64,000 bases of DNA from an uncultured Planctomycetia bacterium (GTDB taxonomy: Bacteria > Omnitrophota > Gorgyraeia > Gorgyraeales > Gorgyraeaceae). Positions 9,837-53,629 of the stretch are shown here, piece after piece. Every line of letters starts with the position of its first letter. Positions within the stretch are counted from its first letter, which is position 1. Made by a program: the position numbers and the translations under genes. Below the pieces are notes generated by a model. The model was given only the letters and a program-made list of their open reading frames with translations. It was not told the origin of the DNA and made no database searches. The stretch covers positions 1,361-65,360 of the forward strand of contig CAYPYS010000001.1 in assembly GCA_964415355.1 (NCBI GenBank), in the 5' to 3' direction.

Positions 9837-9876
9837 CTAACTTTACACTTTAACGTTGTTGAAATGTAAAGTTAAG
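9837..9876. repeat. 39-bp repeat, copy 7 (B)
   Basis: It lies between aroK and dprA. Confidence 0.9.
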
Positions 9877-10480: not shown

Positions 10481-10521
10481 CTTAACTTTACACTTTAACA
10501 TTGTTGAAATGTATACTTAAG
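10481..10521. repeat. 39-bp repeat, copy 8 (B, variant right arm GTATACTTAAG)
   Basis: It contains the hycI stop. Confidence 0.85.
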
Positions 10522-10944
10522 CTTGTCCAGGGCAGCTCTGACCTCTGGGCTCAGGTCCTGGCCAAACTTATTCGACCCAGGCCTTATGCCTAGCACGTAG
10601 ATCTTTGCGTCAGTGGAGGATTTTAAATATTGTATCAAAAGCTTGGGAGACATATCATGAGTAGATATCTTGCCTACCCTTAGGTCATCTCCTGAAAAAA
10701 GCCTTATATCTCCTGGCTTGCCGTCAAAATATACAGCATCGACTATGACAATGGTGTCCGGATCAAGCCTCTTTATGACCCCTGTGTAATTTTCAGGCGC
10801 AACTCCGGCGTCTATTACCTTGAAATTGACCTTGTCCTTTATCTCGCTGGCTAAACGCGGGCCTACCCCATCGTCTCCGCGGTCCCTATTACCAAGACAA
10901 AGCAAGACGCTTTTTTCTTTCAAGATATCTTTTAAATTTACCAT
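10495..10944 (-). CDS. hycI: hydrogenase maturation endopeptidase (HycI/HyaD family)
   Basis: LLCLGNRDRGDDGVGPRLA...IVIVDAV is the conserved protease pattern. The gene lies at the 3' end of the hydrogenase operon. Confidence 0.8.
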   Translation of the reverse strand: MVNLKDILKEKSVLLCLGNRDRGDDGVGPRLASEIKDKVNFKVIDAGVAPENYTGVIKRLDPDTIVIVDAVYFDGKPGDIRLFSGDDLRVGKISTHDMSPKLLIQYLKSSTDAKIYVLGIRPGSNKFGQDLSPEVRAALDKLKYTFQQC

Positions 10945-10951
10945 AAATCTT

Positions 10952-11554
10952 CTATGTATTTAGGGTGATTTCTCTTCGACACTTTGGACAGAGGATGTTT
11001 ATGCGGTCCTGGCGAGTCAAGCCTTCCGGCTTTACGATCTTAAGGTATGCTAATTTGAGCTCTTTTAACGCAGATAGGTATGAAGTGGGGCTAGAATACG
11101 CGAGAGGGCCTAGTTTTTTCGTAACCCATATCAAATGCTCTTTTGCTCCTACCATGCATCCGCAAGCCTCGCATAATACTAGTTCTTTCTCGACTGAATT
11201 TATCGCCTCGTGCCTGTCAAAGACAGACAGGTCATCTAATTTATTGGTCTGCTTTACGCCTTCTTTGGTAATGCATGCGGCCTGACATTGCCCGCAGAAT
11301 ATGCAGCTATCATAATGTATCTCAAGTCTCCGCTTAGGTGCATCTGAATCAATGTCATCTGTCTGCTTTATGCAGCCTGTGGTACAGACCTCGTAACATG
11401 CGCCGCAACCCACGCATTCTTTATCATTGTAAACAGGCTGGCCCCTGTACCTCTTTTCAGGCACGTGCGGCTTAAAAGGAAACTTCGACGTATAAGGTCC
11501 TGCTATCAACGCCTTTATCGCCTCGACCAATTCTCGTAATTTTGGATAACGCAT
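10952..11554 (-). CDS. group 4 hydrogenase 2x[4Fe-4S] subunit (NuoI/HycF/MbhN-like)
   Basis: Two CxxCxxCxxxC motifs are present (CVGCGACYEVC and CIFCGQCQAAC). Position in the operon supports the assignment. Confidence 0.7.
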   Translation of the reverse strand: MRYPKLRELVEAIKALIAGPYTSKFPFKPHVPEKRYRGQPVYNDKECVGCGACYEVCTTGCIKQTDDIDSDAPKRRLEIHYDSCIFCGQCQAACITKEGVKQTNKLDDLSVFDRHEAINSVEKELVLCEACGCMVGAKEHLIWVTKKLGPLAYSSPTSYLSALKELKLAYLKIVKPEGLTRQDRINILCPKCRREITLNT

Positions 11555-11565
11555 ATTTTCCCCAC

Positions 11566-11604
11566 CTAACTTTACATTTCAACAACGTTAAAGTGTAAAC
11601 TTAG
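11566..11604. repeat. 39-bp repeat, copy 9 (A)
   Basis: It lies inside the hydrogenase operon, between the MrpG-like and NuoI-like genes. Confidence 0.9.
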
Positions 11605-11921
11605 GAATTCTTGTACTCGTCTATTACGCTCTTCTCCCAGAGCTTCACGCCTGACTTGTACGCGGCTCGAGCCAGCGCGTGCGCAGATACAGGAGAAGTC
11701 AATATCAAAAATCCCGCGCACAGAAGCGCCTTCATGCCTGTTGCCGTAAATCCGCTTATAAGAAACGCCCCGAACAAGATGCTGCACGTCCCAAGCGTTA
11801 TACACTTGGTAGCTGCCTGTAAACGATTATAAACATCCGGCAGCCTCACCAGGCCCAGGCACCCCACAAAATCAAAGAAAAGACCAACTGATATAAATAT
11901 TAAGCCTATTATATCAATCAT
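11601..11921 (-). CDS. Mrp antiporter subunit G-like (MnhG/MbhC-like)
   Basis: RLPDVYNRLQAATKCITLG matches the MrpG signature. Confidence 0.7.
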   Translation of the reverse strand: MIDIIGLIFISVGLFFDFVGCLGLVRLPDVYNRLQAATKCITLGTCSILFGAFLISGFTATGMKALLCAGFLILTSPVSAHALARAAYKSGVKLWEKSVIDEYKNS

Positions 11922-12291
11922 CCAATGACTTCCCTTCTAAAAATTTAGCCAGAGCGAGCGTTGCTATAAAGCTCTGCAGCGCCCACGCAATCGCAATATC
12001 TATATACCAGCTCCTGCCAGTAGAAATACCCATTATGACGCAAAAACCTACTATCAAAACTCCCAGCATATCCAGCGTCACTGCCCTGTCAGCTGAAGTC
12101 GGCCCTCTCAATATCCGATACAGACAAAGAAGACATGCGAATAAAAGAATATAAAACCCTCTGCTCAAAAATCCCGCAAAAGGCAGGCCTTTGTAAAAAA
12201 GAATGGGCAAGGGCCTTGAGAGGATCGCTGCCATTACAACCACGATTAAAATAACGCCAAAAATATAACCAGTATTGCCCTTTTTCATCAT
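11914..12291 (-). CDS. Mrp antiporter subunit F-like (MnhF/MbhB-like)
   Basis: Small polytopic membrane protein with the RILRGPTSADRAVTLD motif. Confidence 0.65.
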   Translation of the reverse strand: MMKKGNTGYIFGVILIVVVMAAILSRPLPILFYKGLPFAGFLSRGFYILLFACLLCLYRILRGPTSADRAVTLDMLGVLIVGFCVIMGISTGRSWYIDIAIAWALQSFIATLALAKFLEGKSLDD

Positions 12292-12782
12292 TCGAATATC
12301 TTTTTCAAGATCCTTTCAAATCTCTCCACGATAACTTTTGTCGCCTTTTCAACATCCCTCTCTTTTACCTCGATCCAATGCACGTACAGGAACCCATTTT
12401 CCTTGTCAACGTCTACGGTAAGCGTGCCAGGAGTCAGAGTGATAGAATTGGCTAGAAAAGTAAGCGCAGTGTCTGACTTAAGACCCGTCTTGACCTTAAC
12501 TATGCCGGGATGAATAGGCAGCTTTGGATGAAGCACTCTGCATGCCACGTCTATGTTGGCTTTAATGCATTCCCACGCGAAAATAGGCACATAATAGAAA
12601 AACCACATATACCTTCCTGCGTGCGTAAGAAGATGCGCGCGCCTTATAAAGAAATCACCTGTCAGGAAAACAACAAATGCTGACACAAAAACGCCTATGA
12701 CCATATGCTGCCAGTCAGGCACCCAGTTTAGCAATGCCCACGCCAGAAAACCAAGTATGAATAAGATGATCCTGTTTTTCAT
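12288..12782 (-). CDS. Mrp antiporter subunit E-like (MnhE/MbhA-like)
   Basis: MnhE-like; the core region matches the family. Confidence 0.65.
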   Translation of the reverse strand: MKNRIILFILGFLAWALLNWVPDWQHMVIGVFVSAFVVFLTGDFFIRRAHLLTHAGRYMWFFYYVPIFAWECIKANIDVACRVLHPKLPIHPGIVKVKTGLKSDTALTFLANSITLTPGTLTVDVDKENGFLYVHWIEVKERDVEKATKVIVERFERILKKIFE

Positions 12783-14281
12783 TGCCTCAATGCCCCAAAA
12801 ACCACAGTTACATAATCTTTGCCTGTCAGCACTGCGTCTTCAGCGACTTTTAGAAAATCACTATAAACCATTGGCAATAGCATAACTCCGCCTACTATGC
12901 AGATAATCGCCAGCACCACCATTGAAAACTTCATGAAAAACGGCACTTCCTTTACCTTGCTCAGCTTTTCTTTTAATTCTCCGAGAAAACCATATCTCTG
13001 GACTTTCATGAAGGAAGCTAGCGTCAATATGCTCGCCAGTACGGCCCATGCCGCATAACCAAAATGATTGGCCTGAACGCACGCGACAATGATAATAAGC
13101 TTGCTCCAGAATCCATTAAAAGGCGGAATGCCCGCGATAGACATAGACGCGATCATGCTCGTACCTGCCGTGACAGGCATGCGCTCTTTAAGCCCGCCCA
13201 TCTTTTGCAGGTCCCTTGTCCCCGTGGAATATTCGACTGCTCCTGAATTTAAAAACAAAAGAGACTTAAACACTGAATGATTAAATAAATGAAACAAACC
13301 TCCTAAAATCCCGAGCGGCGTGCCCAGGCTAATGCCAAGCACGACATATCCTATCTGGCTCACAGAATGATACGCAAGAAGCCTCTTAAAGTCCCACTGC
13401 CCCAGCGCAAGACACACGCCAATGATCATAGACAGCGCGCCAAGCATCATAAACACACTCAACACCTCGCCGGTCACCCCTATGACGCTGAAAAATATCC
13501 TAATGAGCGCGTATACGCCTAGGGATTTAATAAGAATGCCTGACAGCATCGCGGATATAGGGGCTGGCGCAGAAGGGTGCGCATCAGGAAGCCATGCATG
13601 AAAAGGAACCAGGGCTGCCTTCAGTCCAAAACCCATTAAAAAGAAAACACTGGCCAGGAGCACAATAGAGGAGCTCCCTTTATCGATAAGTTCCATTGAC
13701 ATATCAGCCATATTCAACGTAGAGGTATAACTATACATAAATACAATGCCCAATAATATAAAGGAAGAAGCAACCGTGCCCATAACCGCATACTTAAATG
13801 ACGCCTCGAGCTCTTCCTGCTCAGTTCCAAATGCGACAAGCGCGTAACTCGCGATAGCAGCGATCTCAAGAAAAACATACATGTTAAACATGTCGCCGCT
13901 TATCACCACGCCGTTCATGCCAGCGACCACCAATAAGAAAAGACAATAAAAAACCCACTTTTCAGTGAATTTCTCCATATAGTTAATGGAGTATACGCTG
14001 ATTAAAAACGCGATCAGGTTCACAGTGACCAGCATAAGCACTGTGAGCCCATCCATGACCATTGATATCCCGATAGGCGGCAGCCAGCCACCGACTTTAT
14101 ATACAATCACGCCGCTCTCTTTAAATAAAAATATAGAATATATCGATATAACAGCGAGCGCAAAAGTCGCCACGCCAGACAATATATCCGAAAGCCCTTT
14201 TATCTTCTTCCCAATAAGGGAATTCAGAAACGCGGCGCCGAGCGGTATTATAATGAATAATGGCAATAAATGCTGGGTCAT
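12779..14281 (-). CDS. proton-translocating antiporter-like subunit (MrpD/NuoN/MbhH-like)
   Basis: 500-aa protein with ~14 TM segments. FHAWLPDAHPSAPAPISAML is the conserved complex-I antiporter motif. Confidence 0.8.
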   Translation of the reverse strand: MTQHLLPLFIIIPLGAAFLNSLIGKKIKGLSDILSGVATFALAVISIYSIFLFKESGVIVYKVGGWLPPIGISMVMDGLTVLMLVTVNLIAFLISVYSINYMEKFTEKWVFYCLFLLVVAGMNGVVISGDMFNMYVFLEIAAIASYALVAFGTEQEELEASFKYAVMGTVASSFILLGIVFMYSYTSTLNMADMSMELIDKGSSSIVLLASVFFLMGFGLKAALVPFHAWLPDAHPSAPAPISAMLSGILIKSLGVYALIRIFFSVIGVTGEVLSVFMMLGALSMIIGVCLALGQWDFKRLLAYHSVSQIGYVVLGISLGTPLGILGGLFHLFNHSVFKSLLFLNSGAVEYSTGTRDLQKMGGLKERMPVTAGTSMIASMSIAGIPPFNGFWSKLIIIVACVQANHFGYAAWAVLASILTLASFMKVQRYGFLGELKEKLSKVKEVPFFMKFSMVVLAIICIVGGVMLLPMVYSDFLKVAEDAVLTGKDYVTVVFGALRQ

Positions 14282-14285
14282 ACGA

Positions 14286-14624
14286 TTAACCTTTTAGCTT
14301 TCGTATCTTCGTAATGTCGAACGTGCCGTATTTCTCATACACCCTCATCGCAATCGCCGCTATAAGAGCAGTAACTGCAAGCCCTATGACTATAGCGGTC
14401 AGGACCAATGCCTGCGGAAGAGGGTCTACCATGTCAATTACTGTCTGGTCAGGAGAATGGATCGGCGCGCGGCCATTCATCTTGTAGCCCACAAGAATAA
14501 AAAACAGGTTCACAGCGTATTCCACTATGGCTATGCCTATAATGATCTTTATAAGATTCCTCTTTCTGAGGATACAATAAAGACCTACGCAAAAAAGTAT
14601 TAGACAAAGAAAATAAACGCTCAT
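14286..14624 (-). CDS. Mrp subunit C / NuoK-like membrane subunit
   Basis: 112-aa protein with 3 TM segments, NuoK/MnhC-like. Confidence 0.65.
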   Translation of the reverse strand: MSVYFLCLILFCVGLYCILRKRNLIKIIIGIAIVEYAVNLFFILVGYKMNGRAPIHSPDQTVIDMVDPLPQALVLTAIVIGLAVTALIAAIAMRVYEKYGTFDITKIRKLKG

Positions 14625-15106
14625 TTCTCTTCAGACCCTCTATCGATTCTCAAAAGCACAAGAGTAACCACTATAATAAACAGTCCCGAGCCTACTTTAA
14701 AGGCGATCGCAATATTGGATAAAGGTATCAGGCCAGAGCTAAAAAGCCTGAAAAGTTCTCCCTTGGCTGCAAAATTCAAAAAGAAATATCCGCCGGTTGC
14801 CAGCCCAAGGATACCAATGGTAATAAACATTATCGCGCCCAAGCTCTCGAAAAATGAAGCTACCTTCTGGTCCACTTTTTTAAAAGCTGCTTCTTTTCCG
14901 AACGCCAGCATGATGTGTATAAAAGAGAGCGCTATGATCACGCCACCTGCGAATCCGCCGCCAGGGCTTATGTGGCCGTGCGCGACGATGTACACGCCGA
15001 AAAGCAGTATCAGTCCCACTGTCAACCGCGTGATCGTCTTTACTATTAGTGTCATTCCCTTTTCTTGCTCTCTCATAAAACTGCCCCTAACTTTACTTTT
15101 CAACAA
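14621..15106 (-). CDS. Mrp subunit B-like (MnhB domain)
   Basis: MnhB-like (HGHISPGGGFAGGVIIA). Confidence 0.65.
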   Translation of the reverse strand: MLKSKVRGSFMREQEKGMTLIVKTITRLTVGLILLFGVYIVAHGHISPGGGFAGGVIIALSFIHIMLAFGKEAAFKKVDQKVASFFESLGAIMFITIGILGLATGGYFFLNFAAKGELFRLFSSGLIPLSNIAIAFKVGSGLFIIVVTLVLLRIDRGSEEK

Positions 15107-15125
15107 TGTTAAAATGTAAAGTTAC
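15087..15125. repeat. 39-bp repeat, copy 10 (A-like variant)
   Basis: CTAACTTTACTTTTCAACAATGTTAAAATGTAAAGTTAC lies between Mrp genes inside the operon. Confidence 0.85.
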
Positions 15126-15640
15126 TTCTTTCTGCCTACCCGCCGCATTACGGCGAGAACTCCGATCACGGCCGTAAAGAGGATCGTGGCCTCTCCCAAA
15201 GTATCATATGCCCGGTAATCCAGGACAACCGAGCTCACCAGGTTGGTCGCGCCTGTCTCTCTCATGCCGTGCGTTAAATAATTATGCGCTACTTTCATTA
15301 TTGGCTTGCCAAACTCCGGCAGGCCCTTTAAGCAATAATATCCAAAGGCCAAAAACGCGCCTATAAATATAAAAGCTATGATCGTATTAAAGAACCAGCG
15401 TCCGCTCGTAGAAAAAGGTAAATCTCTTTTGATGGTCGCCCTTATCAATATAATCACGCACAATATCTCGACCACGAGCTGAGCCATAGCCAGGTCCGGC
15501 GCCTTCAATATCAGAAACGCGAGTGACAGCCCAAGCCCTACCACGCCAACCGCAATAACAGAGGACAAAAGATCCTTGGCGTGCACAGCGATCAACGCGC
15601 CGACTATCATGAATATTAAAAGTATGTTTAACTCAAGCAT
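15122..15640 (-). CDS. MrpA C-terminal / MnhB-related membrane subunit (MbhD/E-like)
   Basis: The polytopic protein ends in ...GATNLVSSVVLDYRAYDTLGE, which is MnhB-domain-like. Confidence 0.55.
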   Translation of the reverse strand: MLELNILLIFMIVGALIAVHAKDLLSSVIAVGVVGLGLSLAFLILKAPDLAMAQLVVEILCVIILIRATIKRDLPFSTSGRWFFNTIIAFIFIGAFLAFGYYCLKGLPEFGKPIMKVAHNYLTHGMRETGATNLVSSVVLDYRAYDTLGEATILFTAVIGVLAVMRRVGRKK

Positions 15641-15651
15641 GTCTCATAACC

Positions 15652-17439
15652 TCACATCACGATAACGAAAAAGAACACCAGCATCCCCAGGATACACCAG
15701 GCCAGATACGTGGGCAATACGCCATTATGCAAATACCTGAATATACCTATAAAGAAAAACACGAGTCTTTTGCCCTGGTCGTAAATATCAAAAACCTTTC
15801 TCTCTGCCTTGGCATAAATGCTTCTAAGGAACGGCAGCTCCTTTATTGTACCATAAAATTCTGTGCCGGAAAGTCTCATATCTTTTCCGGTCTCTTCCCC
15901 GCCTATATAGCAATCCGTCTCTCTAACGCCTTTAAAATTACCCAATAAATAAATCAAAATACCAGCGCCAAGGCCTACAACTAAATAAAATGTGGCGCGC
16001 AGGGACGGCCAGCTTCCGACAAAACCAAACCTCTCGGTCAGCGCAGGCAATACAAGATATTTCAAAGGAATTACATAGGCGAACACGCCAAAGACGATAC
16101 AAAGAACCGCCAGGATCACCGGAGGAAGCCACATGGTCCAATGGACTTCATCGCGCTGGCCTGTCTGTCCATCTTTAGATTTACCTAAAAATATCGCGTG
16201 TATGAATTTTATGAATGACGCGAGGGTCAGGCCGCTCCCGAACATCGCTGCTATTATGCAGAATATCCACAGCGCCCCTCCGGACTTCCCGCTCTCTACC
16301 AAACCTTGATAAACCATCCATTTTGAAAAAAATCCGTTAAAAGGCGGCACGCCGGATATCGCGAACGAGGAAACCAGCGTCGTAAAAAATGTCACTGGCA
16401 TAATTTTTGCGAGACCACCTAGAGAATCGAGATCCGATGTCTTTGCCTTATGTTCTACATTGCCGCCTGATAAAAATAAGCAACTTTTGTATATCGCGTG
16501 ATTGATCATATGAAAAAGCCCGCCTGCTATGCCTATAGGATTCCCGGTGCCAATGCCGAGCACCATGTAACCTACCTGGCTCACCGCGTGATAACCCAGG
16601 AGTTTTTTGAAATCGTGCTGCACGAGCGCCATCATAACAGCCGCTATTATAGTGACAGCACCCACCACCATCAGAATAGCGTGGCAAAGCGCGTTCAATA
16701 TAAATATGTGGAGAACCAATCTTGCCAATAAGTAAATGCCTAGAAGTTTATCAAGGCTGGCTGGTAAAAATGCTGTCACCGGCATAGGCGCGTCTTTTGC
16801 TGTATCTGGTATCCAGGAATGAAAAGGCATGGCCCCTGCCTTTGCAAGCGCTCCTATTGTTATCAATAAAAATGCCCAGAAGGCCTGAGGATTATCTACG
16901 GCGATCTTTATATTACTCAGGCTCATATTGCTTGTAATAAGCCACATGAGCGCAAAGCCCAGGACCATGAGGCTGTCTGAGCCGCCTATTATAATAAAGG
17001 TCTTTTTGCTCGTGGCTGCTGCCTTTGGCCCAGATATGTTGATCAACATATAAAGCGTAAAACCCAAAAGGCCCCACGCCACAATAAGCAGCGCCATGTT
17101 ATTGGAAATCGCGGCTAGTATCGAAAGGCCTATGGTCCATATTGTATACGCGTAATACGAGCGCAGCTCTCTGTACGCTGACATAAAACGTAGCGAATAC
17201 ACTGTCACAAGCGCGCCAAAGAATCCCACGCCAATCACGATAAACCTGGAAAGGCCGTCTAAGTATAAAAATTCCCCCTGATACTGCGCCAGAAGAAATA
17301 TCCTAACGCAAGCCGCTGACAGATATATAGAGGTAACAACGCTAAAGCCCTCTATCACCCTCTTCAGCTTTTTAGGGATCAAGAAAATCACGCATCCCGC
17401 GAGTATCGATATTATTATCGGCTGCAATAAAACCTTCAT
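15652..17439 (-). CDS. NuoL/MrpA/HyfB-like antiporter subunit
   Basis: 595 aa. FHSWIPDTAKDAPMPVTAFL is the NuoL-type motif. Confidence 0.8.
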   Translation of the reverse strand: MKVLLQPIIISILAGCVIFLIPKKLKRVIEGFSVVTSIYLSAACVRIFLLAQYQGEFLYLDGLSRFIVIGVGFFGALVTVYSLRFMSAYRELRSYYAYTIWTIGLSILAAISNNMALLIVAWGLLGFTLYMLINISGPKAAATSKKTFIIIGGSDSLMVLGFALMWLITSNMSLSNIKIAVDNPQAFWAFLLITIGALAKAGAMPFHSWIPDTAKDAPMPVTAFLPASLDKLLGIYLLARLVLHIFILNALCHAILMVVGAVTIIAAVMMALVQHDFKKLLGYHAVSQVGYMVLGIGTGNPIGIAGGLFHMINHAIYKSCLFLSGGNVEHKAKTSDLDSLGGLAKIMPVTFFTTLVSSFAISGVPPFNGFFSKWMVYQGLVESGKSGGALWIFCIIAAMFGSGLTLASFIKFIHAIFLGKSKDGQTGQRDEVHWTMWLPPVILAVLCIVFGVFAYVIPLKYLVLPALTERFGFVGSWPSLRATFYLVVGLGAGILIYLLGNFKGVRETDCYIGGEETGKDMRLSGTEFYGTIKELPFLRSIYAKAERKVFDIYDQGKRLVFFFIGIFRYLHNGVLPTYLAWCILGMLVFFFVIVM

Positions 17440-18632
17440 CTATTCTTCCTTAACTTACGTGAGCGTCTCAAACGCTCTGTCTTTTCCTGGGAAAGCCGGA
17501 GAAGATCCTGGCCATCCATGATCTTCTTGCCTGTCTTGTGATCTACAACAGCGGTTCGCTCTGTGCAGCAATAACACGGGTCCACTGCCGCGAGTATTAT
17601 AGTTGCGTCGGAAATCGTATGTCCCACCACTGCCTTTTTGTTCGAGGCTACATTCATATAGCTCGGTGCCCTGACTTTATGACGAGCAGGGCTGTTACCG
17701 CCGTCTGACATAATGTAGTGAAATACCTCGCCGCGCGGCGCCTCGTGCCTGCCAATGCCCTCTCCTACAGGCATGTCCTTTATATTAAGGTCTATTTCGC
17801 CTTTCGGCATCTTATCTAGACATTGCAAAATAATATTGATCGACTCATAAAGCTCCAATATTCTCACGACTGCCTTTGCGAATACGCCGCCGCCTTCCTG
17901 CGTGATCACCTTCCAGTCTACCTTATCATACGCCGCATACGGATCATCTCTTCTCACATCAATGCTCACGCCTGACGCCCTCGCAGTAGGCCCGACTACA
18001 GAATAATCATGTACATCCTGCCTTGTCAATGCGCCAATGCCCTCTGTCCTCGCTCTTATCACAGGGTCATCGATAACCGCTCCTTTAAACATGTCGACTT
18101 TCGGGATCAGACCCTTAAGCATCTTTCTGATCCACGGAAAATCTGCTTCATCCATATCCCTTCTTACGCCGCCTGGCTTGAACATTGCGTAGTGCTGCCT
18201 GTTGCCTGTGACCCTTTCAAAGATATCCAGCACCGGCTCTCTATATTTCCACGCCCACATCCACACAGTATTGTAACCCAAAAAGTGCCCTGCGAGTCCA
18301 ACCCACAAAAGATGACTATGCACCCTCTCAAGTTCACCTATAATAGTGCGGATATAAAGCGCTCTCTCAGGGACCTGGACCCCCAAAAGATCATCGATCG
18401 CGTTAGTATACGCAAAAGGATGCGAGGTAGAACAGATCCCGCAGATCCTCTCCACTAAAAACGTGACCTGGTCATAACTCTTGGACTCCGCTATCTTCTC
18501 GATAGTCCTATGGTTATATCCGATCTCTATATCCATATCCACTACTGTCTCACCGTCCACGTGCAATTTAAAAAATTCCGGCTCTTCCTGCAGCGGGTGA
18601 TATGGGCCTATTGGTATGATCTTATGCGACAT
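17436..18632 (-). CDS. [NiFe] hydrogenase large (catalytic) subunit, group 4 (NuoD-like; MbhL/EchE/HycE-like)
   Basis: The N-terminal Ni-Fe ligand motif RICGICSTSH and the C-terminal DPCYCCTERTAVVDH are both present. A ~34-aa C-terminal extension follows, consistent with HycI processing. Confidence 0.9.
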   Translation of the reverse strand: MSHKIIPIGPYHPLQEEPEFFKLHVDGETVVDMDIEIGYNHRTIEKIAESKSYDQVTFLVERICGICSTSHPFAYTNAIDDLLGVQVPERALYIRTIIGELERVHSHLLWVGLAGHFLGYNTVWMWAWKYREPVLDIFERVTGNRQHYAMFKPGGVRRDMDEADFPWIRKMLKGLIPKVDMFKGAVIDDPVIRARTEGIGALTRQDVHDYSVVGPTARASGVSIDVRRDDPYAAYDKVDWKVITQEGGGVFAKAVVRILELYESINIILQCLDKMPKGEIDLNIKDMPVGEGIGRHEAPRGEVFHYIMSDGGNSPARHKVRAPSYMNVASNKKAVVGHTISDATIILAAVDPCYCCTERTAVVDHKTGKKIMDGQDLLRLSQEKTERLRRSRKLRKNR

Positions 18633-19067
18633 CTACTGGTCTCTCCTTAGGGGATAATTTTCCTTTGGCCAATCGTCTTTCAACAAAAGGTGTGTCAGGT
18701 TCGGATGCCCCTTGAAATTCACGCCTAACAATTCGTGTATCTCTCTTTCTATCCACTCAGCGCACTTTATTATAGAGGTAAGGCTTTCCGCTTCAAGATT
18801 GGGCTTATCCAATATTATTCTCAACGAAACAATAAGCCCTATTTCATCGATTGAAAAATGATAAAGTATCTCTATCGCCTTTCTTGTGTCAACGCCAGAG
18901 GCTGTCGAAAACCTGGCCTTGACGTCGCTAAAAAGATACTTTGCTATCTTGGGTAATATCTCTTTTTTGATAGTTACATAGACGCGTTTTTCTGACCTGT
19001 CATTCAAATCCAAGAGGTCTTTCCCAGCGCGCACCTTTATATTCTCTATTATCTCGAGTCTTTTCAT
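18633..19067 (-). CDS. NuoC-like (30-kDa) hydrogenase subunit (MbhK-like)
   Basis: Complex I 30-kDa domain (EREIHELLGVNFKGHP). Confidence 0.75.
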   Translation of the reverse strand: MKRLEIIENIKVRAGKDLLDLNDRSEKRVYVTIKKEILPKIAKYLFSDVKARFSTASGVDTRKAIEILYHFSIDEIGLIVSLRIILDKPNLEAESLTSIIKCAEWIEREIHELLGVNFKGHPNLTHLLLKDDWPKENYPLRRDQ

Positions 19068-19489
19068 TTCTTTCCTGTAAGCTTTCCTATTAATTTAACA
19101 ATACCTGCTATCATCGCCTCTGGCTTAGGCGGACATCCTGGAATATAGATATCTACCGGAAGCACTGAATCAACGGGATATGGCGTATTTGGCCCGTTCG
19201 CAAAAATCCCCTGACCGCAAGAGCATGCGCCGATTGCGATCACCACGCATGGCTTTGGGGCCTGCTCATAAACAGCCTTTACTCTCGGTATTGTCTTCAG
19301 ATTCAGGGCACCTGTCACAAGTATGGCGTCAGCATGCTTCACGCTCCCCACAAGCATTATGCCGAATCTTTCGACGTCGAAGCGCGGAGTCAAAAGATCC
19401 AGTATCTCTATGTCGCAATTATTGCAGCTGCCTGTCGAAAGGTGATACACCCAGATCGATTTTGTTAATGCCTTTAGCTTTAAACTCAT
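19064..19489 (-). CDS. [NiFe] hydrogenase small subunit, NuoB-like (MbhJ/EchC-like)
   Basis: CNNCDIE...GACSCGQGIF...GCPP gives the proximal 4Fe-4S ligands. Confidence 0.85.
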   Translation of the reverse strand: MSLKLKALTKSIWVYHLSTGSCNNCDIEILDLLTPRFDVERFGIMLVGSVKHADAILVTGALNLKTIPRVKAVYEQAPKPCVVIAIGACSCGQGIFANGPNTPYPVDSVLPVDIYIPGCPPKPEAMIAGIVKLIGKLTGKK

Positions 19490-19512
19490 GCTCTTCTTTA
19501 GTTCAACTGCTC

Positions 19513-19550
19513 CTAAGTTTACACTTTAACGTTGTTGAAATGTAAAGTTA
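19513..19550. repeat. 39-bp repeat, copy 11 (B)
   Basis: It lies between the NuoH-like and NuoB-like genes. Confidence 0.9.
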
Positions 19551-20453
19551 CATCCCCATCGTAGCCAGTATAACTGCGATTATAGCTATAGCTGTCATCT
19601 TTCTCCAGAAAAATCTCACTGCCTGATCTATCCTCACGCGAGGATTCGTGTTCCTGATTAAAGTTATCAGCACCAGTAACACAACGTACTTCCATATGCT
19701 AAAACCACCCCACAGTATCGTGATCAAAAATACTGGCAACGCGACCAGCATCATTGTCTTTGTAAGTTTTAATATTGCAAGCAATATCCCCGAGTATTCT
19801 ATCTGTATTCCTCCCATTATCTCTGTCTCTGCTTCTGCCATATCAAAAGGCACAAGGCCTAGTTTTGCCTGCATGCAGAATATCGCTACCAATAGCGCCA
19901 GGATCCCGGAAAAACTTGCGACAAAAGACCCGTTTGCTGCCTGATAGGCGATAAGTTGCTCAAACCTCAGAAATCCGCCACTCTTAATGATCGGGATAGT
20001 AAATATTATAATAAACGGCAATTCATAAGCCAGGAGAAGCTTGATCTCTCTCGATATGCCCACGGATGCAAGCGGATTGCCGCTGGAAGACGCGCCTATT
20101 ATCAGGGCGATCGCCGGCAAGGTCAATAGATATAAGACGACTATCATGTCACCCGTAAAACCATTGCTCCCTATATTTAGATTGGGCAGCCATATAAAGG
20201 TAGAGGCCAATATGACCGCGCTGAGTCCGACTAAAGGCGAAAGCATAAATGTAAGCTTTGAGGCACCGCGCGGCACAGTGATCTCTTTTATACTCAGTTT
20301 CACCAGGTCAATAAACGGCTGATACCATGGCGGGCCCACTCTCCACTGGACGCGCGCTGTGACCTTGCGGTCGATCCAGCTCGCCACCAGGCCAATGGCC
20401 GCCGTAAAAATAAAACCTGGGAATATCAGGAAATTAAATAAATTTTTTACCAT
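19548..20453 (-). CDS. NuoH-like membrane subunit (MbhM/HycD/EchB-like)
   Basis: WIDRKVTARVQWRVGPP is the NuoH signature. Confidence 0.8.
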   Translation of the reverse strand: MVKNLFNFLIFPGFIFTAAIGLVASWIDRKVTARVQWRVGPPWYQPFIDLVKLSIKEITVPRGASKLTFMLSPLVGLSAVILASTFIWLPNLNIGSNGFTGDMIVVLYLLTLPAIALIIGASSSGNPLASVGISREIKLLLAYELPFIIIFTIPIIKSGGFLRFEQLIAYQAANGSFVASFSGILALLVAIFCMQAKLGLVPFDMAEAETEIMGGIQIEYSGILLAILKLTKTMMLVALPVFLITILWGGFSIWKYVVLLVLITLIRNTNPRVRIDQAVRFFWRKMTAIAIIAVILATMGM

Positions 20454-20459
20454 AATCCT

Positions 20460-20942
20460 CTACGGGTGGTACTTTTTCCACTGTTTCGCGTGAACCGCGA
20501 TCCTGTCACTTACCAGATGTATGTCGTCTTTTTCCGATTCCTTTACCTCTATATACTTTGCCGCGCCTTCAATGGAGCAGGTCCTTGTGCAGAGCGGTGC
20601 TTCTTTGTCAGCCCTGTCTATGCATGCGTCGCATTGCGAAATAATATAAGGCACTGTCTCGATAGGGATCACTCCAAACGGACACGCGTGACTGCAAGAC
20701 TTACAGGATATACAGCGCATAGTGTAGCGCTTTACCACGCCGTCCTCTTGTTTCTCGAGTGCATCTTTCGGGCAAGCGTTAACGCACGGCGCATCCTCGC
20801 ACCTCCTGCATATATGCAAAAATTGCGCGATCTCTCTCAGGCGAGTCACGCCGTCATTTTCAGGGTGGTAGTAGTAGCTGCACTCGGCCGTAGGCCGCTC
20901 GCAACTATACAATTTCTCAACATCTATCAGCAATTTCTTCAT
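20460..20942 (-). CDS. 4Fe-4S dicluster ferredoxin-type electron-transfer subunit (HycB/CooF-like)
   Basis: Several Cys clusters are present (CRRCEDAPCVNACP, CISCKSCSHACP). The start is moved past the repeat-derived MLKCKVRRGE extension. Confidence 0.65.
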   Translation of the reverse strand: MKKLLIDVEKLYSCERPTAECSYYYHPENDGVTRLREIAQFLHICRRCEDAPCVNACPKDALEKQEDGVVKRYTMRCISCKSCSHACPFGVIPIETVPYIISQCDACIDRADKEAPLCTRTCSIEGAAKYIEVKESEKDDIHLVSDRIAVHAKQWKKYHP

Positions 20943-20952
20943 CTCACCCCTC

Positions 20953-20991
20953 CTAACTTTACATTTCAACAACGTTAAAATGTAAAGTTAA
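20953..20991. repeat. 39-bp repeat, copy 12 (A)
   Basis: It lies between the AsrB-like gene and the ferredoxin gene. Confidence 0.9.
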
Positions 20992-21000
20992 GCTCCTGCA

Positions 21001-21825
21001 CTAATCCCAAATCTCATGGATATTGCTTATCTTGTCATAACTAAACACGGGCCCGTCTTTGCACACATAATAATCCCCAAGCCTGCAATGCCCACATTTA
21101 CCAAACCCGCAGCTCATGTTTTTTTCCATTGACAGATATATCTGTTTCTCTTTATAGCCTATATCGATCAACTTGAATGTCGCAAACTTCATCATTATAG
21201 GCGGACCGCACACCACTGCGACGCTATTCTTCAGATTGATTTTCAATTTATCCAAAGTAGTCGTTACAAGTCCTACCTTACCCTTCCACGCATCATCCTT
21301 CTTATCGACTGTGACCCTGAAATCAACCCTCTTGTCTATTTTCTGCCATTTATCTAATACATTATCTTTGTAGATCATATCAGACGGCGTCCTGGCTCCG
21401 CAGCAAAAGGTTATACCTTTATATTTATTCAGGTCGTGGACCAACGCCAGGAATAAGGCTCGAAGCGGTGCCAACCCCACGCCTCCTCCTACAAGCAGGA
21501 TCTCCTTGCCCTCAAATTCATTAAGAGGATACTCAACTCCATACGGACCTCTCAGCCCCACTGTATCGCCTTTTTTCAAATCATGTATCTTAGAAGTCAC
21601 TCTCCCGACATTCATGACAGTAACTTCCAGTTTGCTCTTTTGATGAGGCGATGATGAAGGAGTAAACGGCGCTTCGCCCAAGCCGGGGATAGTCATCTCG
21701 ATAAACTGGCCTGCCTTAAAGTGTAAAGGTTTCTCGGTCTTGAACGATAAAGTCTTGATAGTAGGGCTTTCCTTTACAACGTCCACTACTTCGCTCTTTA
21801 TAGGTATATAAGGGTTTTCTATCAT
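21001..21825 (-). CDS. FAD/NAD(P)-binding oxidoreductase subunit with C-terminal [2Fe-2S] (AsrB / sulfhydrogenase gamma / PyrK-like)
   Basis: A ferredoxin-reductase fold is followed by CGFGKCGHCRLG. Confidence 0.7.
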   Translation of the reverse strand: MIENPYIPIKSEVVDVVKESPTIKTLSFKTEKPLHFKAGQFIEMTIPGLGEAPFTPSSSPHQKSKLEVTVMNVGRVTSKIHDLKKGDTVGLRGPYGVEYPLNEFEGKEILLVGGGVGLAPLRALFLALVHDLNKYKGITFCCGARTPSDMIYKDNVLDKWQKIDKRVDFRVTVDKKDDAWKGKVGLVTTTLDKLKINLKNSVAVVCGPPIMMKFATFKLIDIGYKEKQIYLSMEKNMSCGFGKCGHCRLGDYYVCKDGPVFSYDKISNIHEIWD

Positions 21826-22841
21826 AGCTTACTCAGAACTTCTTGAATTTTTATTTTACCAGGACACGCATCCGAACACCTGCCGCAACCAGTGCAGCCA
21901 AATCTTCCGATAAAGTTAGGAAAAAAATTAAATTTCTTATCAAATCGGTTCCTAAGGCGCTGCGCTAACAATTTTCTTGGATTTGCGTTCCCCGCGACCC
22001 TTGCAAAGGACATCAGGAGACAGGAGTCCCATAATCTCAGCCTCTCAAAGGCCTCTTCCGTCGGCTGGTCTTTTAAAATAAAACAATGGCATGCCGGACA
22101 GATCACGTTGCAGGCACCACACTCAACGCAGGTCTTGGAAGTCTCTTCCCAGAGGTTCGAATCAAAGCTTTTCTTAAAACGATTCTGGATAGACTCTTTG
22201 GCCGGTATCTTTTTTTTGTGCACATGTTCTATCAATGCCTCTTTCAGCTTCCTTCTCGCCTCTTCTTTTCTTTCTATATAAAGATCCGCTGTCTGGAACA
22301 GCTTGGCGTAATCTCTTATTATTTTTTCCCCTTTTTCAGAACCCACCTCTGCCACATAGCCGCTTCCCATCTCTGACAGGTTCATGTCAAAATCTTCGGT
22401 GGGATACGGCATTATGCCCAGGCCAACACAAAAACAACTGTCGCCGAAAGACCCGCAGTCACTGGAAATCACAAGGCCTTCTTCTCTCTGAGCGATATAA
22501 AACGGGTCCTTAAAAGATTCCTGCTTAAACACATAGTCCATCACTTTCAACGAAGCCAGGTCACATGACTTCGCGCCGATTATAGCTACAGGCCTGGATC
22601 TTTTCCCAGATATTTTTTCAGTAAAGTAATCGCCTACTTTTGCTCGGGCAGGAAAATAAAAACTTTTTATGCTCTGGACAGAACGAAATTCGCCGATGAT
22701 AGCATCCCCAAGCCCTTCGTCGCCCATCTTTTTATAATGTCTATGCTCGCCTGATTTTACAGGTAAGTAGACTCTATATGCCTTGGAAAGGGATCTGACT
22801 AATCTATCGAGGTTGGGTCTGTTTATGAAATACTTGTCCAA
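21822..22841 (-). CDS. 4Fe-4S subunit (AsrA / sulfhydrogenase beta-like)
   Basis: CVECGACNVICPACHC and CTGCGRCSDACP motifs are present. The gene overlaps the AsrB-like gene. The start is TTG with AAGG 9 nt upstream. Confidence 0.65.
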   Translation of the reverse strand: MDKYFINRPNLDRLVRSLSKAYRVYLPVKSGEHRHYKKMGDEGLGDAIIGEFRSVQSIKSFYFPARAKVGDYFTEKISGKRSRPVAIIGAKSCDLASLKVMDYVFKQESFKDPFYIAQREEGLVISSDCGSFGDSCFCVGLGIMPYPTEDFDMNLSEMGSGYVAEVGSEKGEKIIRDYAKLFQTADLYIERKEEARRKLKEALIEHVHKKKIPAKESIQNRFKKSFDSNLWEETSKTCVECGACNVICPACHCFILKDQPTEEAFERLRLWDSCLLMSFARVAGNANPRKLLAQRLRNRFDKKFNFFPNFIGRFGCTGCGRCSDACPGKIKIQEVLSKL

Positions 22842-22865: not shown

Positions 22866-22883
22866 TTGTGAAAATTATCACAA
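22866..22883. promoter_or_regulatory. perfect CRP/FNR-family type palindrome TTGTGA-N6-TCACAA, 25-42 nt upstream of the first gene of the hydrogenase operon
   Basis: TTGTGAaaattaTCACAA is read directly from the sequence. It matches the CRP consensus half-sites TGTGA/TCACA with a 6-bp spacer. Confidence 0.5.
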
Positions 22884-22961
22884 GATTTTGAAAATAAAAA
22901 AAACGAATTAGCCTAAATTATAAAGTCAAAGCTTCTGACTGTCAAGAAAAAAATAACTTTA

Positions 22962-23441: not shown

Positions 23442-23455
23442 GCTCCCCTCCCTCT

Positions 23456-23494
23456 CTAACTTTACATTTCAACAACGTTAAAGTGTAAAGTTAG
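23456..23494. repeat. 39-bp repeat, copy 13 (A)
   Basis: It lies between the UPF0280-like gene and the ferredoxin-NIL gene. Confidence 0.9.
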
Positions 23495-24233: not shown

Positions 24234-24272
24234 CTAACTTTACATTTCAACAACGTTAAAGTGTAAAGTTAG
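24234..24272. repeat. 39-bp repeat, copy 14 (A)
   Basis: It lies between hypA and the UPF0280-like gene. Confidence 0.9.
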
Positions 24273-24610
24273 GCGATCTCGATTGAGTCAACGTAAATAC
24301 CTGAGCCAGAAATAATATCTGCGATCTTGCTATTGCAAACAGGGCACTCTAAGTCGCCCACGCAAAAGAACTCAGCCTGGCAGTTTTTACATTTAAACTT
24401 TGCCTTTATTTTTTTGAAATCCAATTCTACGGCGGCAAGAGGCGTGTCTTTTGTCCTCTCCCTGAAATGAAACTCAAAGTGACCCGGGCTAACATGCTCC
24501 AGCTCGCCTATTGCTATATTGATTTTTTTAAGCCTCGAGCCTGCTTTTGCTTCTTTTAATTTGGCATTGATCGTACAAATTATATCATCTACTAATCCTA
24601 TCTCGTGCAT
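24269..24610 (-). CDS. hypA: hydrogenase nickel-insertion protein HypA
   Basis: The MHE N-terminus and the CKNC...CPVC zinc site match HypA. Confidence 0.85.
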   Translation of the reverse strand: MHEIGLVDDIICTINAKLKEAKAGSRLKKINIAIGELEHVSPGHFEFHFRERTKDTPLAAVELDFKKIKAKFKCKNCQAEFFCVGDLECPVCNSKIADIISGSGIYVDSIEIA

Positions 24611-24623
24611 AACCGCTACCTCG

Positions 24624-25622
24624 CTAGCATATACGGGGGAACTGTTCGCCTCTTAACATGTCCAATATCCGTGTCCCGCCTATCTTGGTCTTTAAATAAA
24701 CTTTTTTGTCTTTTTGCTTCGTAACCTCTCCTATGACCTTGCTATTGCTCCCAAGCGCATGCCTCTTCAGCTTTGACAATATCTTCGAAGCAGATCTATC
24801 GGAAACAACAAGTACTACCTTGCCTTCGTTCGCCATATATAAAGGATCGAGCCCTAAAATCTCGCACAGCTCCCTTACTGACTCTTTTACAGGAAGCTGC
24901 GACTCCTCTATATATATATTGCGGCTGGACTCTATAGCCACCTCGTTTAGGGTAGTGGCGAGCCCTCCTCTTGTCGGGTCTCTCATAAATCTAACATCTG
25001 GACACAGAACAGAAGACACCAGGTCATTGACTGGCGCACAATCGCTAAAGATCCTTGATTCGAATTTCAGCTCTTCTCTCGCAAGAAGCACTGCTGCGCC
25101 ATGGTCGCCTATTGTACCGCTTACAATAATTTTATCGCCAGGCCTGATGCGATCGAGCGACAATCTAGATTCTTTAAGTATCTCGCCAAACCCGGATGTA
25201 TTTATGAAAATTTTATCCACTGCACCTTTTTCAACGACCTTAAAATCACCCGTAACTATATTCACGCCCACCTTCTTGCACGTGTTTTTCATAGACAATG
25301 TTATTTTCTCCAGGTCTTTATAATCAAACCCTTCTTCGACGATCATGCCACAGGATAGATACCTTGGCCTGGCACCGCATACAGACAAGTCATTCACAGT
25401 GCCGCACACAGCTAATTTTCCTATGTCGCCGCCTGGAAAAAATATCGGGTCAATGACAAAGGAATCAGTAGTATATGCGACTTTTCGGTTTCCGGTGTCT
25501 ATAAGCGCAGAATCTCCTAATTTATTTAAGTAAGAATTGTTCAGATTCTTCACGAATAAATCCTTTATCAGATCTTGCATCAGGCTTCCGCCGCTTCCAT
25601 GGGATAAAGTTATTTTTTTCAT
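24624..25622 (-). CDS. hypE: hydrogenase maturation protein HypE
   Basis: AIR-synthase-like fold with the C-terminal PRIC motif. Confidence 0.9.
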   Translation of the reverse strand: MKKITLSHGSGGSLMQDLIKDLFVKNLNNSYLNKLGDSALIDTGNRKVAYTTDSFVIDPIFFPGGDIGKLAVCGTVNDLSVCGARPRYLSCGMIVEEGFDYKDLEKITLSMKNTCKKVGVNIVTGDFKVVEKGAVDKIFINTSGFGEILKESRLSLDRIRPGDKIIVSGTIGDHGAAVLLAREELKFESRIFSDCAPVNDLVSSVLCPDVRFMRDPTRGGLATTLNEVAIESSRNIYIEESQLPVKESVRELCEILGLDPLYMANEGKVVLVVSDRSASKILSKLKRHALGSNSKVIGEVTKQKDKKVYLKTKIGGTRILDMLRGEQFPRIC

Positions 25623-26707: not shown

Positions 26708-26710
26708 ACG

Positions 26711-26917
26711 CTATAATTCCGAAAGCATGCGAAGAGTTTCTTCTGCTTTCTCTGGGTTAAGCTTTTCTATTGCAAAGCCAGCGTGCACCATTACATAATC
26801 CCCTATCTTTGGACTGGCCAAAAAATTTATCGCGACTCTGCGCTGCACGCTCCCAGCAGAAACAAGTGCCCTGTCCCCTTCTATTTTTAATATTTTCATC
26901 GGTATTGCCAGGCACAT
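26711..26917 (-). CDS. hypC: hydrogenase maturation protein HypC
   Basis: The protein starts MCLAIP. The track's upstream extension MTKEIY is discarded. Confidence 0.85.
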   Translation of the reverse strand: MCLAIPMKILKIEGDRALVSAGSVQRRVAINFLASPKIGDYVMVHAGFAIEKLNPEKAEETLRMLSEL

Positions 26918-26930
26918 ATATATTTCCTTT

Positions 26931-26953
26931 GTCATTCCCGCGGAAGCGGGAAT
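26931..26953. repeat. GC-hairpin repeat GTCATTCCCGCGGAAGCGGGAAT (copy 3 of 4)
   Basis: The stem TTCCCGC/GCGGGAA has a GRAA loop. It lies 13 nt upstream of the hypC start. Confidence 0.8.
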
Positions 26954-26964
26954 CTATATCTCGT

Positions 26965-27002
26965 TTAACTTTACATTTTAACGTTGTTGAAATGTAAAGT
27001 TA
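26965..27002. repeat. 39-bp repeat, copy 15 (B)
   Basis: It lies between hypF-C and hypC, next to GC hairpin copy 3. Confidence 0.9.
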
Positions 27003-28107: not shown

Positions 28108-28120
28108 TTGCAGCGAGCAC

Positions 28121-28159
28121 CTAAGTTTACACTTTAACATTGTTGAAATGTAAAGTTAG
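28121..28159. repeat. 39-bp repeat, copy 16 (B)
   Basis: It lies between the MetE-like gene and hypF-C. Confidence 0.9.
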
Positions 28160-50265: not shown

Positions 50266-50280
50266 AACTTATAATTCCTT

Positions 50281-53620: not shown

Positions 53621-53629
53621 ATCAGCTTA

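Follow-up and report, generated by a model that had tools for sequence, protein, structure and literature searches.

Which electron donor supplies a membrane-bound hydrogenase whose operon begins with genes for a soluble flavoprotein pair? This question is raised by a 64,000-nt stretch of DNA from an uncultured Omnitrophota bacterium (GenBank assembly GCA_964415355.1, contig CAYPYS010000001.1, positions 1,361 to 65,360), hereafter called the window. The interval under study, positions 10495-22841 on the minus strand, is filled by 17 consecutive and tightly packed open reading frames (ORFs). A preliminary description had read these as a 17-gene operon for a group 4 [NiFe] hydrogenase with an Mrp module, headed by an AsrA/AsrB-like pair of FAD-, NAD(P)- and iron-sulfur-binding proteins and a polyferredoxin. 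Every element that it listed was recovered with its coordinates unchanged. We consider it probable, at roughly 60%, that this is an operon of the Hun type which combines a hydrogenase core, an Mrp module and an NAD(P)H input module, in which electrons would pass from NAD(P)H to H2 with coupling through the Mrp arm and under Rex-type control.

The architecture itself is not new. This type entered the literature in 2021, from metagenomes, under the name of Hun, a "[NiFe] hydrogenase-Na+/H+ antiporter supercomplex"; the account was based on metagenome-assembled genomes (MAGs) of Atribacteria and Firmicutes, and further carriers were reported in Omnitrophica, Elusimicrobia and Bacteroidetes and among Kosmotoga isolates (Glass et al. 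2021, bioRxiv 10.1101/536078). We assigned domains to the 17 proteins using Pfam and NCBIfam, and the Pfam domains of genes 1-16 correspond one for one to hunA-hunP in Table S5 of that study. The large-subunit signature CGIC...CYCC of the published complex is also present here in HunG. As judged from domain content, the region is therefore the hun operon hunABCDEFGHIJKLMNOP followed by hycI, with 16 genes matching the published set gene for gene. The AsrA/AsrB-like head, which had been called unusual in the preliminary description, is real but belongs to this known complex. Beyond what was published, we make a case for an NAD(P)H donor, show that hunABC consistently precede the hydrogenase core, and report a conserved promoter with a Rex-type operator next to it.

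We searched 185,579 species-level genomes and found 579 stretches with a relative of the large subunit, of which the best 80 loci were analysed. The closest large-subunit relatives came from MAGs of Candidatus Omnitrophota, with identities of at most 95%. The order A-B-C-NuoH-NuoB-NuoC-large subunit-NuoL-MbhDE-MrpB-C-D-E-F-G-NuoI-HycI was retained across these loci wherever the contig reaches, which is far beyond chance. Indeed, an operon with a 58%-identical large subunit presented the same 17 genes, all abutting or overlapping, and intergenic gaps in the relatives were 0-10 nt or negative. The genes hunABC lie upstream of the hydrogenase core in all 56 related loci whose sequence continues for 4.4 kb or more ahead of the large subunit. 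They are also retained in a variant without Mrp genes found in an Elusimicrobia MAG (locus L050), which ties the HunABC module to the hydrogenase core.

Several loci depart from this layout. In L050 and in an Omnitrophica MAG (L063), the whole MbhDE and MrpB-G block is absent, so that hunP and hycI come immediately after the NuoL-like gene. The resulting order in L050 is A-B-C-NuoH-NuoB-NuoC-large subunit-NuoL-NuoI-HycI; L063 begins at NuoH on a contig edge, so that any hunABC genes would fall outside the contig. In eight Omnitrophota loci (L033, L034, L044, L046, L068, L071, L075 and L076) an additional MrpD-like gene is found between the large subunit and hunH, and two truncated loci, L043 and L070, seem to share it. 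Finally, in a subclade labelled 'Clostridia', a second HunA paralogue (about 30% identical) precedes the hun operon (L024, 2284-5344; L027, 2430-5487; L030, 2639-5699), as do MobA-like, FdhD and Rex genes, which hints at a link to a molybdoenzyme in these genomes. We rejected the idea that hunA is split by a selenocysteine codon or in-frame stop in these three loci: the second hit is the paralogue, about 3 kb upstream, and is followed by the MobA- and FdhD-like genes. Locus L030 (WJOT01000115) probably originates from the study of Glass et al. itself, given that its isolate name is in the Site-1244 style and that its WJO accession resembles those of the tabulated MAGs.

The evidence on the electron donor comes mainly from the first two genes. 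hunA (21822..22841, minus strand like all genes of the operon; 339 aa, TTG start) encodes an iron-sulfur protein resembling AsrA and the beta subunit of Pyrococcus furiosus soluble hydrogenase I (SHI, sulfhydrogenase 1) (Fer4_22, 4.6e-29; PDB 9nez_B, 2.6e-35), and it aligns to the latter over residues 18-332. All 15 of its cysteines are 100% conserved among 60 orthologues. hunB (21001..21825; 274 aa) overlaps hunA by 4 nt and encodes a flavoprotein resembling AsrB and SHI gamma, with predicted FAD, NAD(P) and [2Fe-2S] sites (NAD_binding_1, 1.5e-15; FAD_binding_6, 4e-9; DHODB_Fe-S_bind, 1.7e-10; PDB 9nez_C, 3.8e-58). Its four [2Fe-2S] cysteines are invariant in 64 orthologues, at least 90% of which also conserve the motifs PFTPSS (FAD), GGGVGlAPLR (NAD(P) loop) and CGPPIMMKF. 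The pair presents the features expected of SHI beta/gamma, i.e., Fer4_22 and an N-terminal cysteine cluster in HunA, and FAD_binding_6, NAD_binding_1 and a C-terminal [2Fe-2S] site in HunB. The SHI pair has been described as a module "involved in NADPH oxidation" (PMC13582414). Because the FAD, NAD(P) and cluster motifs are so conserved, HunB is hard to explain as a mere ferredoxin wire. We infer, on good grounds, that Hun is linked to NAD(P)H, and the homology and conservation of HunA and HunB favour this reading over the published ferredoxin model. The loop after beta-2 of HunB (GART) resembles both NfnA and SHI gamma and does not tell a preference for NADH from one for NADPH.

The preliminary description had also suggested an NAD(P)H-linked complex rather than a purely ferredoxin-driven one, a view that our comparisons favour, and had raised the possibility of bifurcation, which fares less well. 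No second flavin site or bifurcating module (HydB/NuoF-type flavin mononucleotide, HdrA, NfnB or EtfAB) was detected in the 17 proteins with Pfam or NCBIfam, and there is therefore no support for bifurcation.

The proteins that might connect this pair to the hydrogenase are of the formate hydrogenlyase kind. hunC (20460..20942; 160 aa from an ATG at 20942) encodes a polyferredoxin of the HycB/CooF/HydN type (Fer4_11, 4e-12; HydN/DmsB-type matches) with 14 conserved cysteines, which places it in the HycB/CooF/DmsB family. Its PDB matches include HycB (7z0s_B) and the HycB3/4 subunits in a structure of hydrogen-dependent CO2 reductase (7qv7). hunP (10952..11554) encodes a HycF/NuoI-like subunit with two [4Fe-4S] clusters (Fer4_7; NCBIfam formate hydrogenlyase (FHL) iron-sulfur subunit, 1.4e-21), and it is closer to HycF (7z0s_F, 58.7 bits) than to MbhN (6cfw_N, 36.9 bits). 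Twelve cysteines of HunP are 100% conserved; it carries four extra conserved C-terminal cysteines, and these pairs are shared with HycF and likewise 100% conserved. HunC and HunP thus correspond to iron-sulfur subunits in the E. coli formate hydrogenlyase structure 7z0s. In that enzyme, HycB and HycF wire a soluble dehydrogenase to the hydrogenase. We found no formate dehydrogenase, molybdopterin or carbon monoxide dehydrogenase partner in the operon, in the window flanks or in the 80 related loci.

The core is that of a group 4 enzyme, with a NuoD-related large subunit carrying N- and C-terminal CxxC ligands of the NiFe site, a NuoB-like small subunit with one [4Fe-4S] cluster, and NuoC-, NuoH- and NuoI-like subunits. 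The large subunit is encoded by hunG (17436..18632; PF00346, Complex1_49kDa, 2.4e-70, and PF00374, NiFeSe_Hases), the small subunit by hunE (19064..19489; PF01058, 1.8e-29), the NuoC-like subunit by hunF (18633..19067; PF00329, 1.7e-25) and the NuoH/MbhM-like membrane subunit by hunD (19548..20453; PF00146, 5.6e-56). Cysteines 22, 25, 89 and 119 of HunE are 100% conserved among 78 orthologues. HunG carries RICGICSTSH and DPCYCCTER, the latter of which is present in 118 of 120 homologues. These homologues extend 29-49 aa beyond the last Ni ligand, consistent with processing by HycI, the large-subunit maturation endopeptidase encoded by the last gene (10495..10944; PF01750, 3e-20; TIGR00142 hycI, 112 bits; TIGR00072 above cut-off). 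The assignment to group 4 in the preliminary description is upheld by these motifs and by the best solved relatives, MbhL (6cfw_L, 293 bits) and HycE (7z0s_E, 286 bits), to which HunG appears equally close. Among representatives at 50% identity, the CYCC motif is confined to the Hun cluster and missing from other group 4 sequences, the nearest large subunit without it being P0121, which lies on short contigs. Identity of the large subunit falls from 58-60% to at most 48% outside the cluster, which agrees with a separate clade. HydDB class 4g has been given to HunG and to Mrp-linked hydrogenases of Omnitrophota (Glass et al. 2021; Williams et al. 2021), and in the account of Glass et al. HunG stands far from the rest of that class.

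The membrane arm comprises two antiporter-like subunits. The first, encoded by hunH (15652..17439; 595 aa; PF00361, Proton_antipo_M, 2.3e-56), resembles the N-terminal part of MrpA, NuoL and MbsH'; its best PDB match is MrpA (7qru_A), then MbhH, and its whole length can be aligned to 6u8y_X, which in MBS is the second antiporter-like subunit. The second is the MrpD-like product of hunL (12779..14281; 500 aa; PF00361, 9.1e-71, and PF00662). The product of hunI (15122..15640; PF13244, 4.3e-17; PF20501, 5.5e-10) corresponds to MbhD and MbhE, that is, to the C-terminal part of MrpA. The remaining genes encode subunits similar to MrpB/MnhB (hunJ, 14621..15076, start revised to an ATG at 15076; PF04039, 4.2e-25), MrpC/NuoK (hunK, 14286..14624; PF00420, 1.2e-28), MrpE (hunM, 12288..12782; PF01899, 9e-47), MrpF (hunN, 11914..12291; PF04066, 4.7e-17) and MrpG (hunO, 11601..11921; PF03334, 3.5e-26). 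The Mrp set made up by HunH, HunI and HunJ-O is complete and includes both antiporter-like subunits. By these similarities, the complex is a hybrid of formate-hydrogenlyase-like wiring and an Mrp/MBS-like membrane arm.

Transcription of the operon was considered next to its gene content. A sigma-70 promoter with a 12/12 consensus match (TTGACA-17-TATAAT; 22917..22945, minus strand) lies about 75 nt upstream of the hunA start and is the sole 12/12 match between 9800 and 23600; near-consensus promoters are found at the equivalent position in relatives. Between its -10 box and the hunA start lies a predicted Rex-type operator, TTGTGATAATTTTCACAA (22866..22883), which is the sole TTGTGA-N6-TCACAA site with at most one mismatch in the 64-kb window. 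The operator TTGTGAAnnnnTTCACAA is present at the hun promoter, and the hun motif equals the Rex operator consensus TTGTGAANNNNTTCACAA (PMC6391272). An operator with at most two mismatches precedes hunA in 32 of the 57 related loci with upstream DNA, usually 16-58 nt ahead of the start codon and some 30-45 nt past a near-consensus -10 box. The operon with the 58%-identical large subunit also carries the site. Across the related loci, TGTGA-N6-TCACA was observed 33 times versus 1.3 expected, at positions that coincide with the hunA upstream region. Ten loci have a gene of Rex architecture (PF06971 and PF02629) as the immediate upstream neighbour of hunA. The same two domains are listed for hunR in the published table, and neither Rex nor NADH sensing is mentioned in the text of that study (Glass et al. 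2021). Rex is known to repress hydrogenase genes (PMC6391272). Separate transcription of the AsrAB-like genes, which would have undone the grouping made in the preliminary description, is not what the locus suggests: hunA and hunB share the single consensus promoter and are packed against or overlap the rest. Together, these features argue for a single transcription unit read from hunA under a redox-sensing repressor, and Rex would be expected to bind the hun operator.

Our results suggest the following mechanism. NAD(P)H would be oxidised at the FAD of HunB, in a cytoplasmic input module formed by HunB, HunA and HunC. Electrons would then pass from the [2Fe-2S] cluster of HunB to the [4Fe-4S] clusters of HunA, to the HycB-like HunC, to the HycF-like HunP, to HunE and finally to the NiFe site of HunG, where protons would be reduced to H2 in a reversible reaction. 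The hydrogenase core would consist of HunD, HunE, HunF, HunG and HunP, and electron transfer would be coupled to Na+/H+ movement through the Mrp-type cation/proton module, in which HunH and HunI would stand for MrpA and HunJ-O for MrpB-G. With potentials of -320 mV for NAD(P)H and -414 mV for H2, the step that makes H2 from NAD(P)H requires about +18 kJ/mol in the standard state and is downhill only below about 60 Pa of H2. Because this step is uphill, outward ion pumping by an NAD(P)H-fed Hun is excluded save at extremely low H2, and these standard potentials suggest that the ion gradient would more likely be spent to drive H2 evolution than be built by it. The single promoter upstream of hunA would read the whole operon, and a Rex-type sensor of NADH/NAD+ on TTGTGA-N6-TCACAA would probably repress it, such that the operon would be switched on when reduced pyridine nucleotides accumulate. 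Going one step further, we propose tentatively, at slightly less than even odds, that Hun is a Rex-controlled NAD(P)H:proton oxidoreductase, comparable to a complex I that ends in protons, which acquired its SHI beta/gamma-type module independently of NuoEFG and is driven by the gradient through its Mrp arm.

Several observations weigh against an NAD(P)H-fed Hun. The characterised group 4 hydrogenases use, to our knowledge, ferredoxin, formate or CO, and we know of none shown to use NAD(P)H. H2 evolution from NAD(P)H, which could pump ions only at extremely low H2, sits oddly beside a full Mrp arm, and only the synteny of their genes suggests that HunA touches HunC. No recognisable operator precedes hunA in 25 of the 57 loci, and there is no rex gene within the 64-kb window. 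Moreover, Rex also represses genes of ferredoxin-dependent hydrogenases in Caldicellulosiruptor (PMC6391272), and Rex control therefore does not discriminate between donors. The published model itself proposes ferredoxin and not NAD(P)H as the donor (Glass et al. 2021): reduced ferredoxin would feed the complex, HunABC would be a mere wire to the NiFe site, and H2 evolution would pump H+ or Na+ outward as in Mbh. This is a serious rival. The step from ferredoxin to H2 is exergonic and suits an ion-pumping Mrp arm, the [4Fe-4S]-rich HunA and HunC could dock ferredoxin, and class 4g, to which HunG belongs in HydDB, is labelled "putatively ferredoxin-coupled" in the literature. We nonetheless judge it unlikely, since a pure ferredoxin wire leaves the strictly conserved FAD- and NAD(P)-binding HunB without a role, and the closest solved homologue of HunB is the NADPH-oxidising SHI gamma. 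Mbh accepts ferredoxin at MbhN without any such module, and the published premise that AsrAB takes electrons from ferredoxin is unsupported by the domain content of AsrAB.

The energetic difficulty would disappear if NAD(P)H and reduced ferredoxin were oxidised jointly to H2, or if the reverse reaction took place. A three-branched, bifurcation-like network has in fact been proposed for group 4b clusters that combine SHI beta/gamma with an inactive formate dehydrogenase (PMC13582414). Such a confurcating or bifurcating enzyme is very improbable here: the 17 proteins contain neither a second flavin nor a module of the NuoF/HydB, HdrA, NfnB/GltD or EtfAB type, the formate dehydrogenase (Fdh)-like third branch is absent from the operon and from all 80 loci, and HunB looks like SHI gamma and like NfnA, a small subunit that does not bifurcate. 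Another possibility is that the complex works in vivo in the direction of uptake, with H2 oxidised, NAD(P)+ reduced and about 18 kJ/mol available to pump ions, i.e., as an energy-conserving H2:NAD(P)+ oxidoreductase. By standard potentials this is downhill at high H2, and P. furiosus SHI probably recycles H2 to NADPH. The reversibility of [NiFe] hydrogenase catalysis, as stated in a recent survey (PMC13582414), also speaks for uptake. Yet a Rex-type operator implies induction at high NADH, the opposite of what a producer of NAD(P)H needs, and carriers of hun are described as fermenters that must shed reductant; we find uptake improbable. Finally, hunAB could encode an independent enzyme pair that merely neighbours the hydrogenase, for instance part of a sulfite or sulfur reductase. 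AsrA and AsrB are indeed near-best NCBIfam names, and in this genome a hairpin-forming palindrome separates hunB from hunC. We give this disfavoured explanation hardly any credence. No asrC or siroheme gene occurs in the operon flanks, the pair accompanies the hydrogenase in 56 of 56 loci, relatives that lack the palindrome have hunB and hunC abutting or overlapping, and the sole strong promoter lies upstream of hunA. The palindrome also splits hunD from hunE, hunI from hunJ and hunO from hunP, and hence marks no boundary. An NAD(P)H-fed Hun remains the reading that we prefer.

The palindrome in question is a 33-nt sequence, ACTTTACA(Y)TT(Y)AAC-NNN-GTT(R)AA(R)TGTAAAGT, of which the window contains 24 full copies. 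Its consensus can be written as ACTTTACAYTTYAAC-NNN-GTTRAARTGTAAAGT; it is imperfect and flanked by TA on both sides. Half-sites were observed 58 times in the window against 0.29 expected, and the full copies occur in both orientations (15 and 9). They are always intergenic, typically right after a stop codon and a median of 14 nt before the next ATG. The hun operon itself contains four full copies, at the junctions hunB/hunC (20956..20988; 33 nt, genome-specific), hunD/hunE (19516..19548), hunI/hunJ (15090..15122) and hunO/hunP (11569..11601); others are found, for example, at 1600-1632, 5013-5045, 9840-9872, 23459-23491, 24237-24269, 36038-36070, 57376-57408 and 61786-61818. The TTG starts of gene 3 (20972) and gene 10 (15106) fall within inserted copies, and the true starts are likely the ATG at 20942 for hunC and the ATG at 15076 for hunJ. 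The copy between hunB and hunC could form an RNA hairpin of -20.9 kcal/mol with no U-tract after it. We considered and rejected the possibility that it acts as a terminator or splits the operon there, as the palindrome also separates three core gene pairs, lacks a U-tract and is missing in relatives, where the genes abut. Indeed, the palindrome of the window was found in none of the 80 related loci. These palindromes are lineage-specific insertions into an ancestrally compact operon and not operon boundaries, and the sequence looks like a small mobile element similar to miniature inverted-repeat transposable elements (MITE) or repetitive extragenic palindromes (REP).

A degenerate copy (10485..10517) supplies the last seven codons and the stop of hycI, so that the C-terminal end of the protein appears to have been reshaped by the insertion. 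Different palindromic repeats occur at other operon junctions in related Omnitrophota (e.g., L001, 3856-3924 and 6255-6384; L005, 9392-9468 and 9904-10000), and further relatives have repeats of their own (L007, 9946-10000; L009, 4391-4445 and 6768-6806; L020, 6804-6864 and 9504-9565). L001, whose large subunit is 95% identical, presents a variant of the window palindrome at different junctions in addition to two other repeat families. This distribution suggests a rapid turnover of palindromic insertions within operons.

Genes for [NiFe] maturation occupy 24269..28140 upstream of the operon, also on the minus strand: the C-terminal half of hypF (26971-28140), hypC (26711-26935), hypD (25619-26707), hypE (24624-25622) and hypA (24269-24610). 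No hypB was seen among the annotated ORFs between 23034 and 33426. The HypF protein consists only of the Kae1-like C-terminal half (389 aa, equivalent to positions 382-739 of TIGR00143). The preceding ORF (344 aa; region 26971-29190) lacks the N-terminal domains of HypF and has a weak methionine-synthase-like match. The split is common to close relatives, and the distant Hun locus L084 has a full HypF of 747 aa. Between hypA and the hun promoter (23034-24222) lie genes for a NIL-domain ferredoxin with two [4Fe-4S] clusters and a hypothetical protein of the PRK04334 family. This pair is conserved at that position in 14 close relatives only, and it may concern sulfur or homocysteine metabolism and not the hydrogenase. 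GC skew is negative throughout the window (1-64000), where almost every long ORF is on the minus strand. An Rfam scan of the window returned three tRNAs only (354-1547), with no match inside the operon. We also considered a second hydrogenase or Nuo cluster at 49-58 kb and rejected it, as the genes there (49744-58604) form a type IV pilus cluster that includes a GAF histidine kinase.

For this window, the outcome is modest: the operon type is named correctly, and a promoter and a likely regulator are added. The wider interest lies in the fact that Hun is so far known from genes, as a biochemically uncharacterised type, and that uncultivated anaerobes in sediments and groundwater commonly carry operons of this kind. 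If Hun is fed by NAD(P)H, it would constitute a second, independent coupling of pyridine-nucleotide oxidation to a membrane machine of the complex I type. It would then serve subsurface fermenters such as Omnitrophota, Atribacteria and Kosmotoga as a valve for reduced pyridine nucleotides, contradicting the published ferredoxin model, and models of H2 and redox balance in its carriers would change. The question of the donor is testable, as cultivated Kosmotoga have been reported to carry hun.

The nearest system for comparison is the Hun complex as published (Glass et al. 2021), from which our reading differs in the donor, NAD(P)H here and ferredoxin there. In some genomes of that study a Rex-like hunR is adjacent to the operon; it is given as 'N/A' for Omnitrophica, and none lies in this 64-kb window. 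The locus described here is further characterised by hycI directly after hunP, by hyp genes upstream and by four to five genome-specific palindromes between genes. An "enigmatic" Mrp-Mbh-type hydrogenase with FdhH-like, asrA-like, asrB-like and cooF-like genes was reported in Saganbacteria RX5A, with its closest relatives in Omnitrophica and Zixibacteria (Matheus Carnevali et al. 2019, PMC6349859). As here, an AsrA/AsrB/CooF-like trio stands beside a group 4 hydrogenase with Mrp subunits; unlike here and in the 80 related loci, a molybdopterin (FdhH-like) protein is present. Similarly, a 2026 survey describes group 4b clusters in which homologues of SHI beta/gamma occur with a catalytically dead formate dehydrogenase (PMC13582414). 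These clusters also place an NAD(P)H module of the SHI beta/gamma type on a group 4 hydrogenase, but they belong to another subgroup and have an Fdh-like third branch for which bifurcation was proposed, whereas the Hun operon studied here has no Fdh-like gene.

The preliminary description had equated the architecture with that of Mbh from Thermococcales, which is true in part. Homologues of MbhA-H and MbhJ-N of P. furiosus MBH (group 4d, PDB 6CFW) are all present in the Hun operon. However, the fourteen subunits of MBH (MbhA-N) include only one that is antiporter-like and come with no added dehydrogenase module, whereas Hun has two antiporter-like subunits and three extra input subunits, and MBH takes ferredoxin at MbhN, whereas the connector of Hun is HycF-like and not MbhN-like. 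With formate hydrogenlyase of E. coli (group 4a, PDB 7Z0S), Hun shares HycB- and HycF-like connectors, a HycE-like large subunit with a cleavable extension, and HycI. In contrast, Hun has no formate dehydrogenase, its soluble dehydrogenase being an NAD(P)H-type flavoprotein pair, and it has a full Mrp module where formate hydrogenlyase has HycC and HycD alone. HunA and HunB match SHI beta/gamma of P. furiosus (9NEZ) and AsrA/AsrB of Salmonella over their full length in domain architecture and cofactor ligands, but their NCBIfam scores fall far below the equivalog cut-offs. The partner in those systems is a group 3b alpha/delta dimer or the siroheme protein AsrC, neither of which was found in the operon or its flanks, and in Hun it is a membrane-bound group 4 hydrogenase. 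Finally, Hun shares the modular plan of complex I and MBS, with a soluble dehydrogenase, a NuoB/C/D/H/I core and antiporter-like subunits, HunH aligning over its full length to MbsH'. It differs from complex I in that its NAD(P)H module is not NuoEFG, and from both in that its acceptor site retains the NiFe ligands, so that electrons would be delivered to protons instead of quinone or polysulfide.

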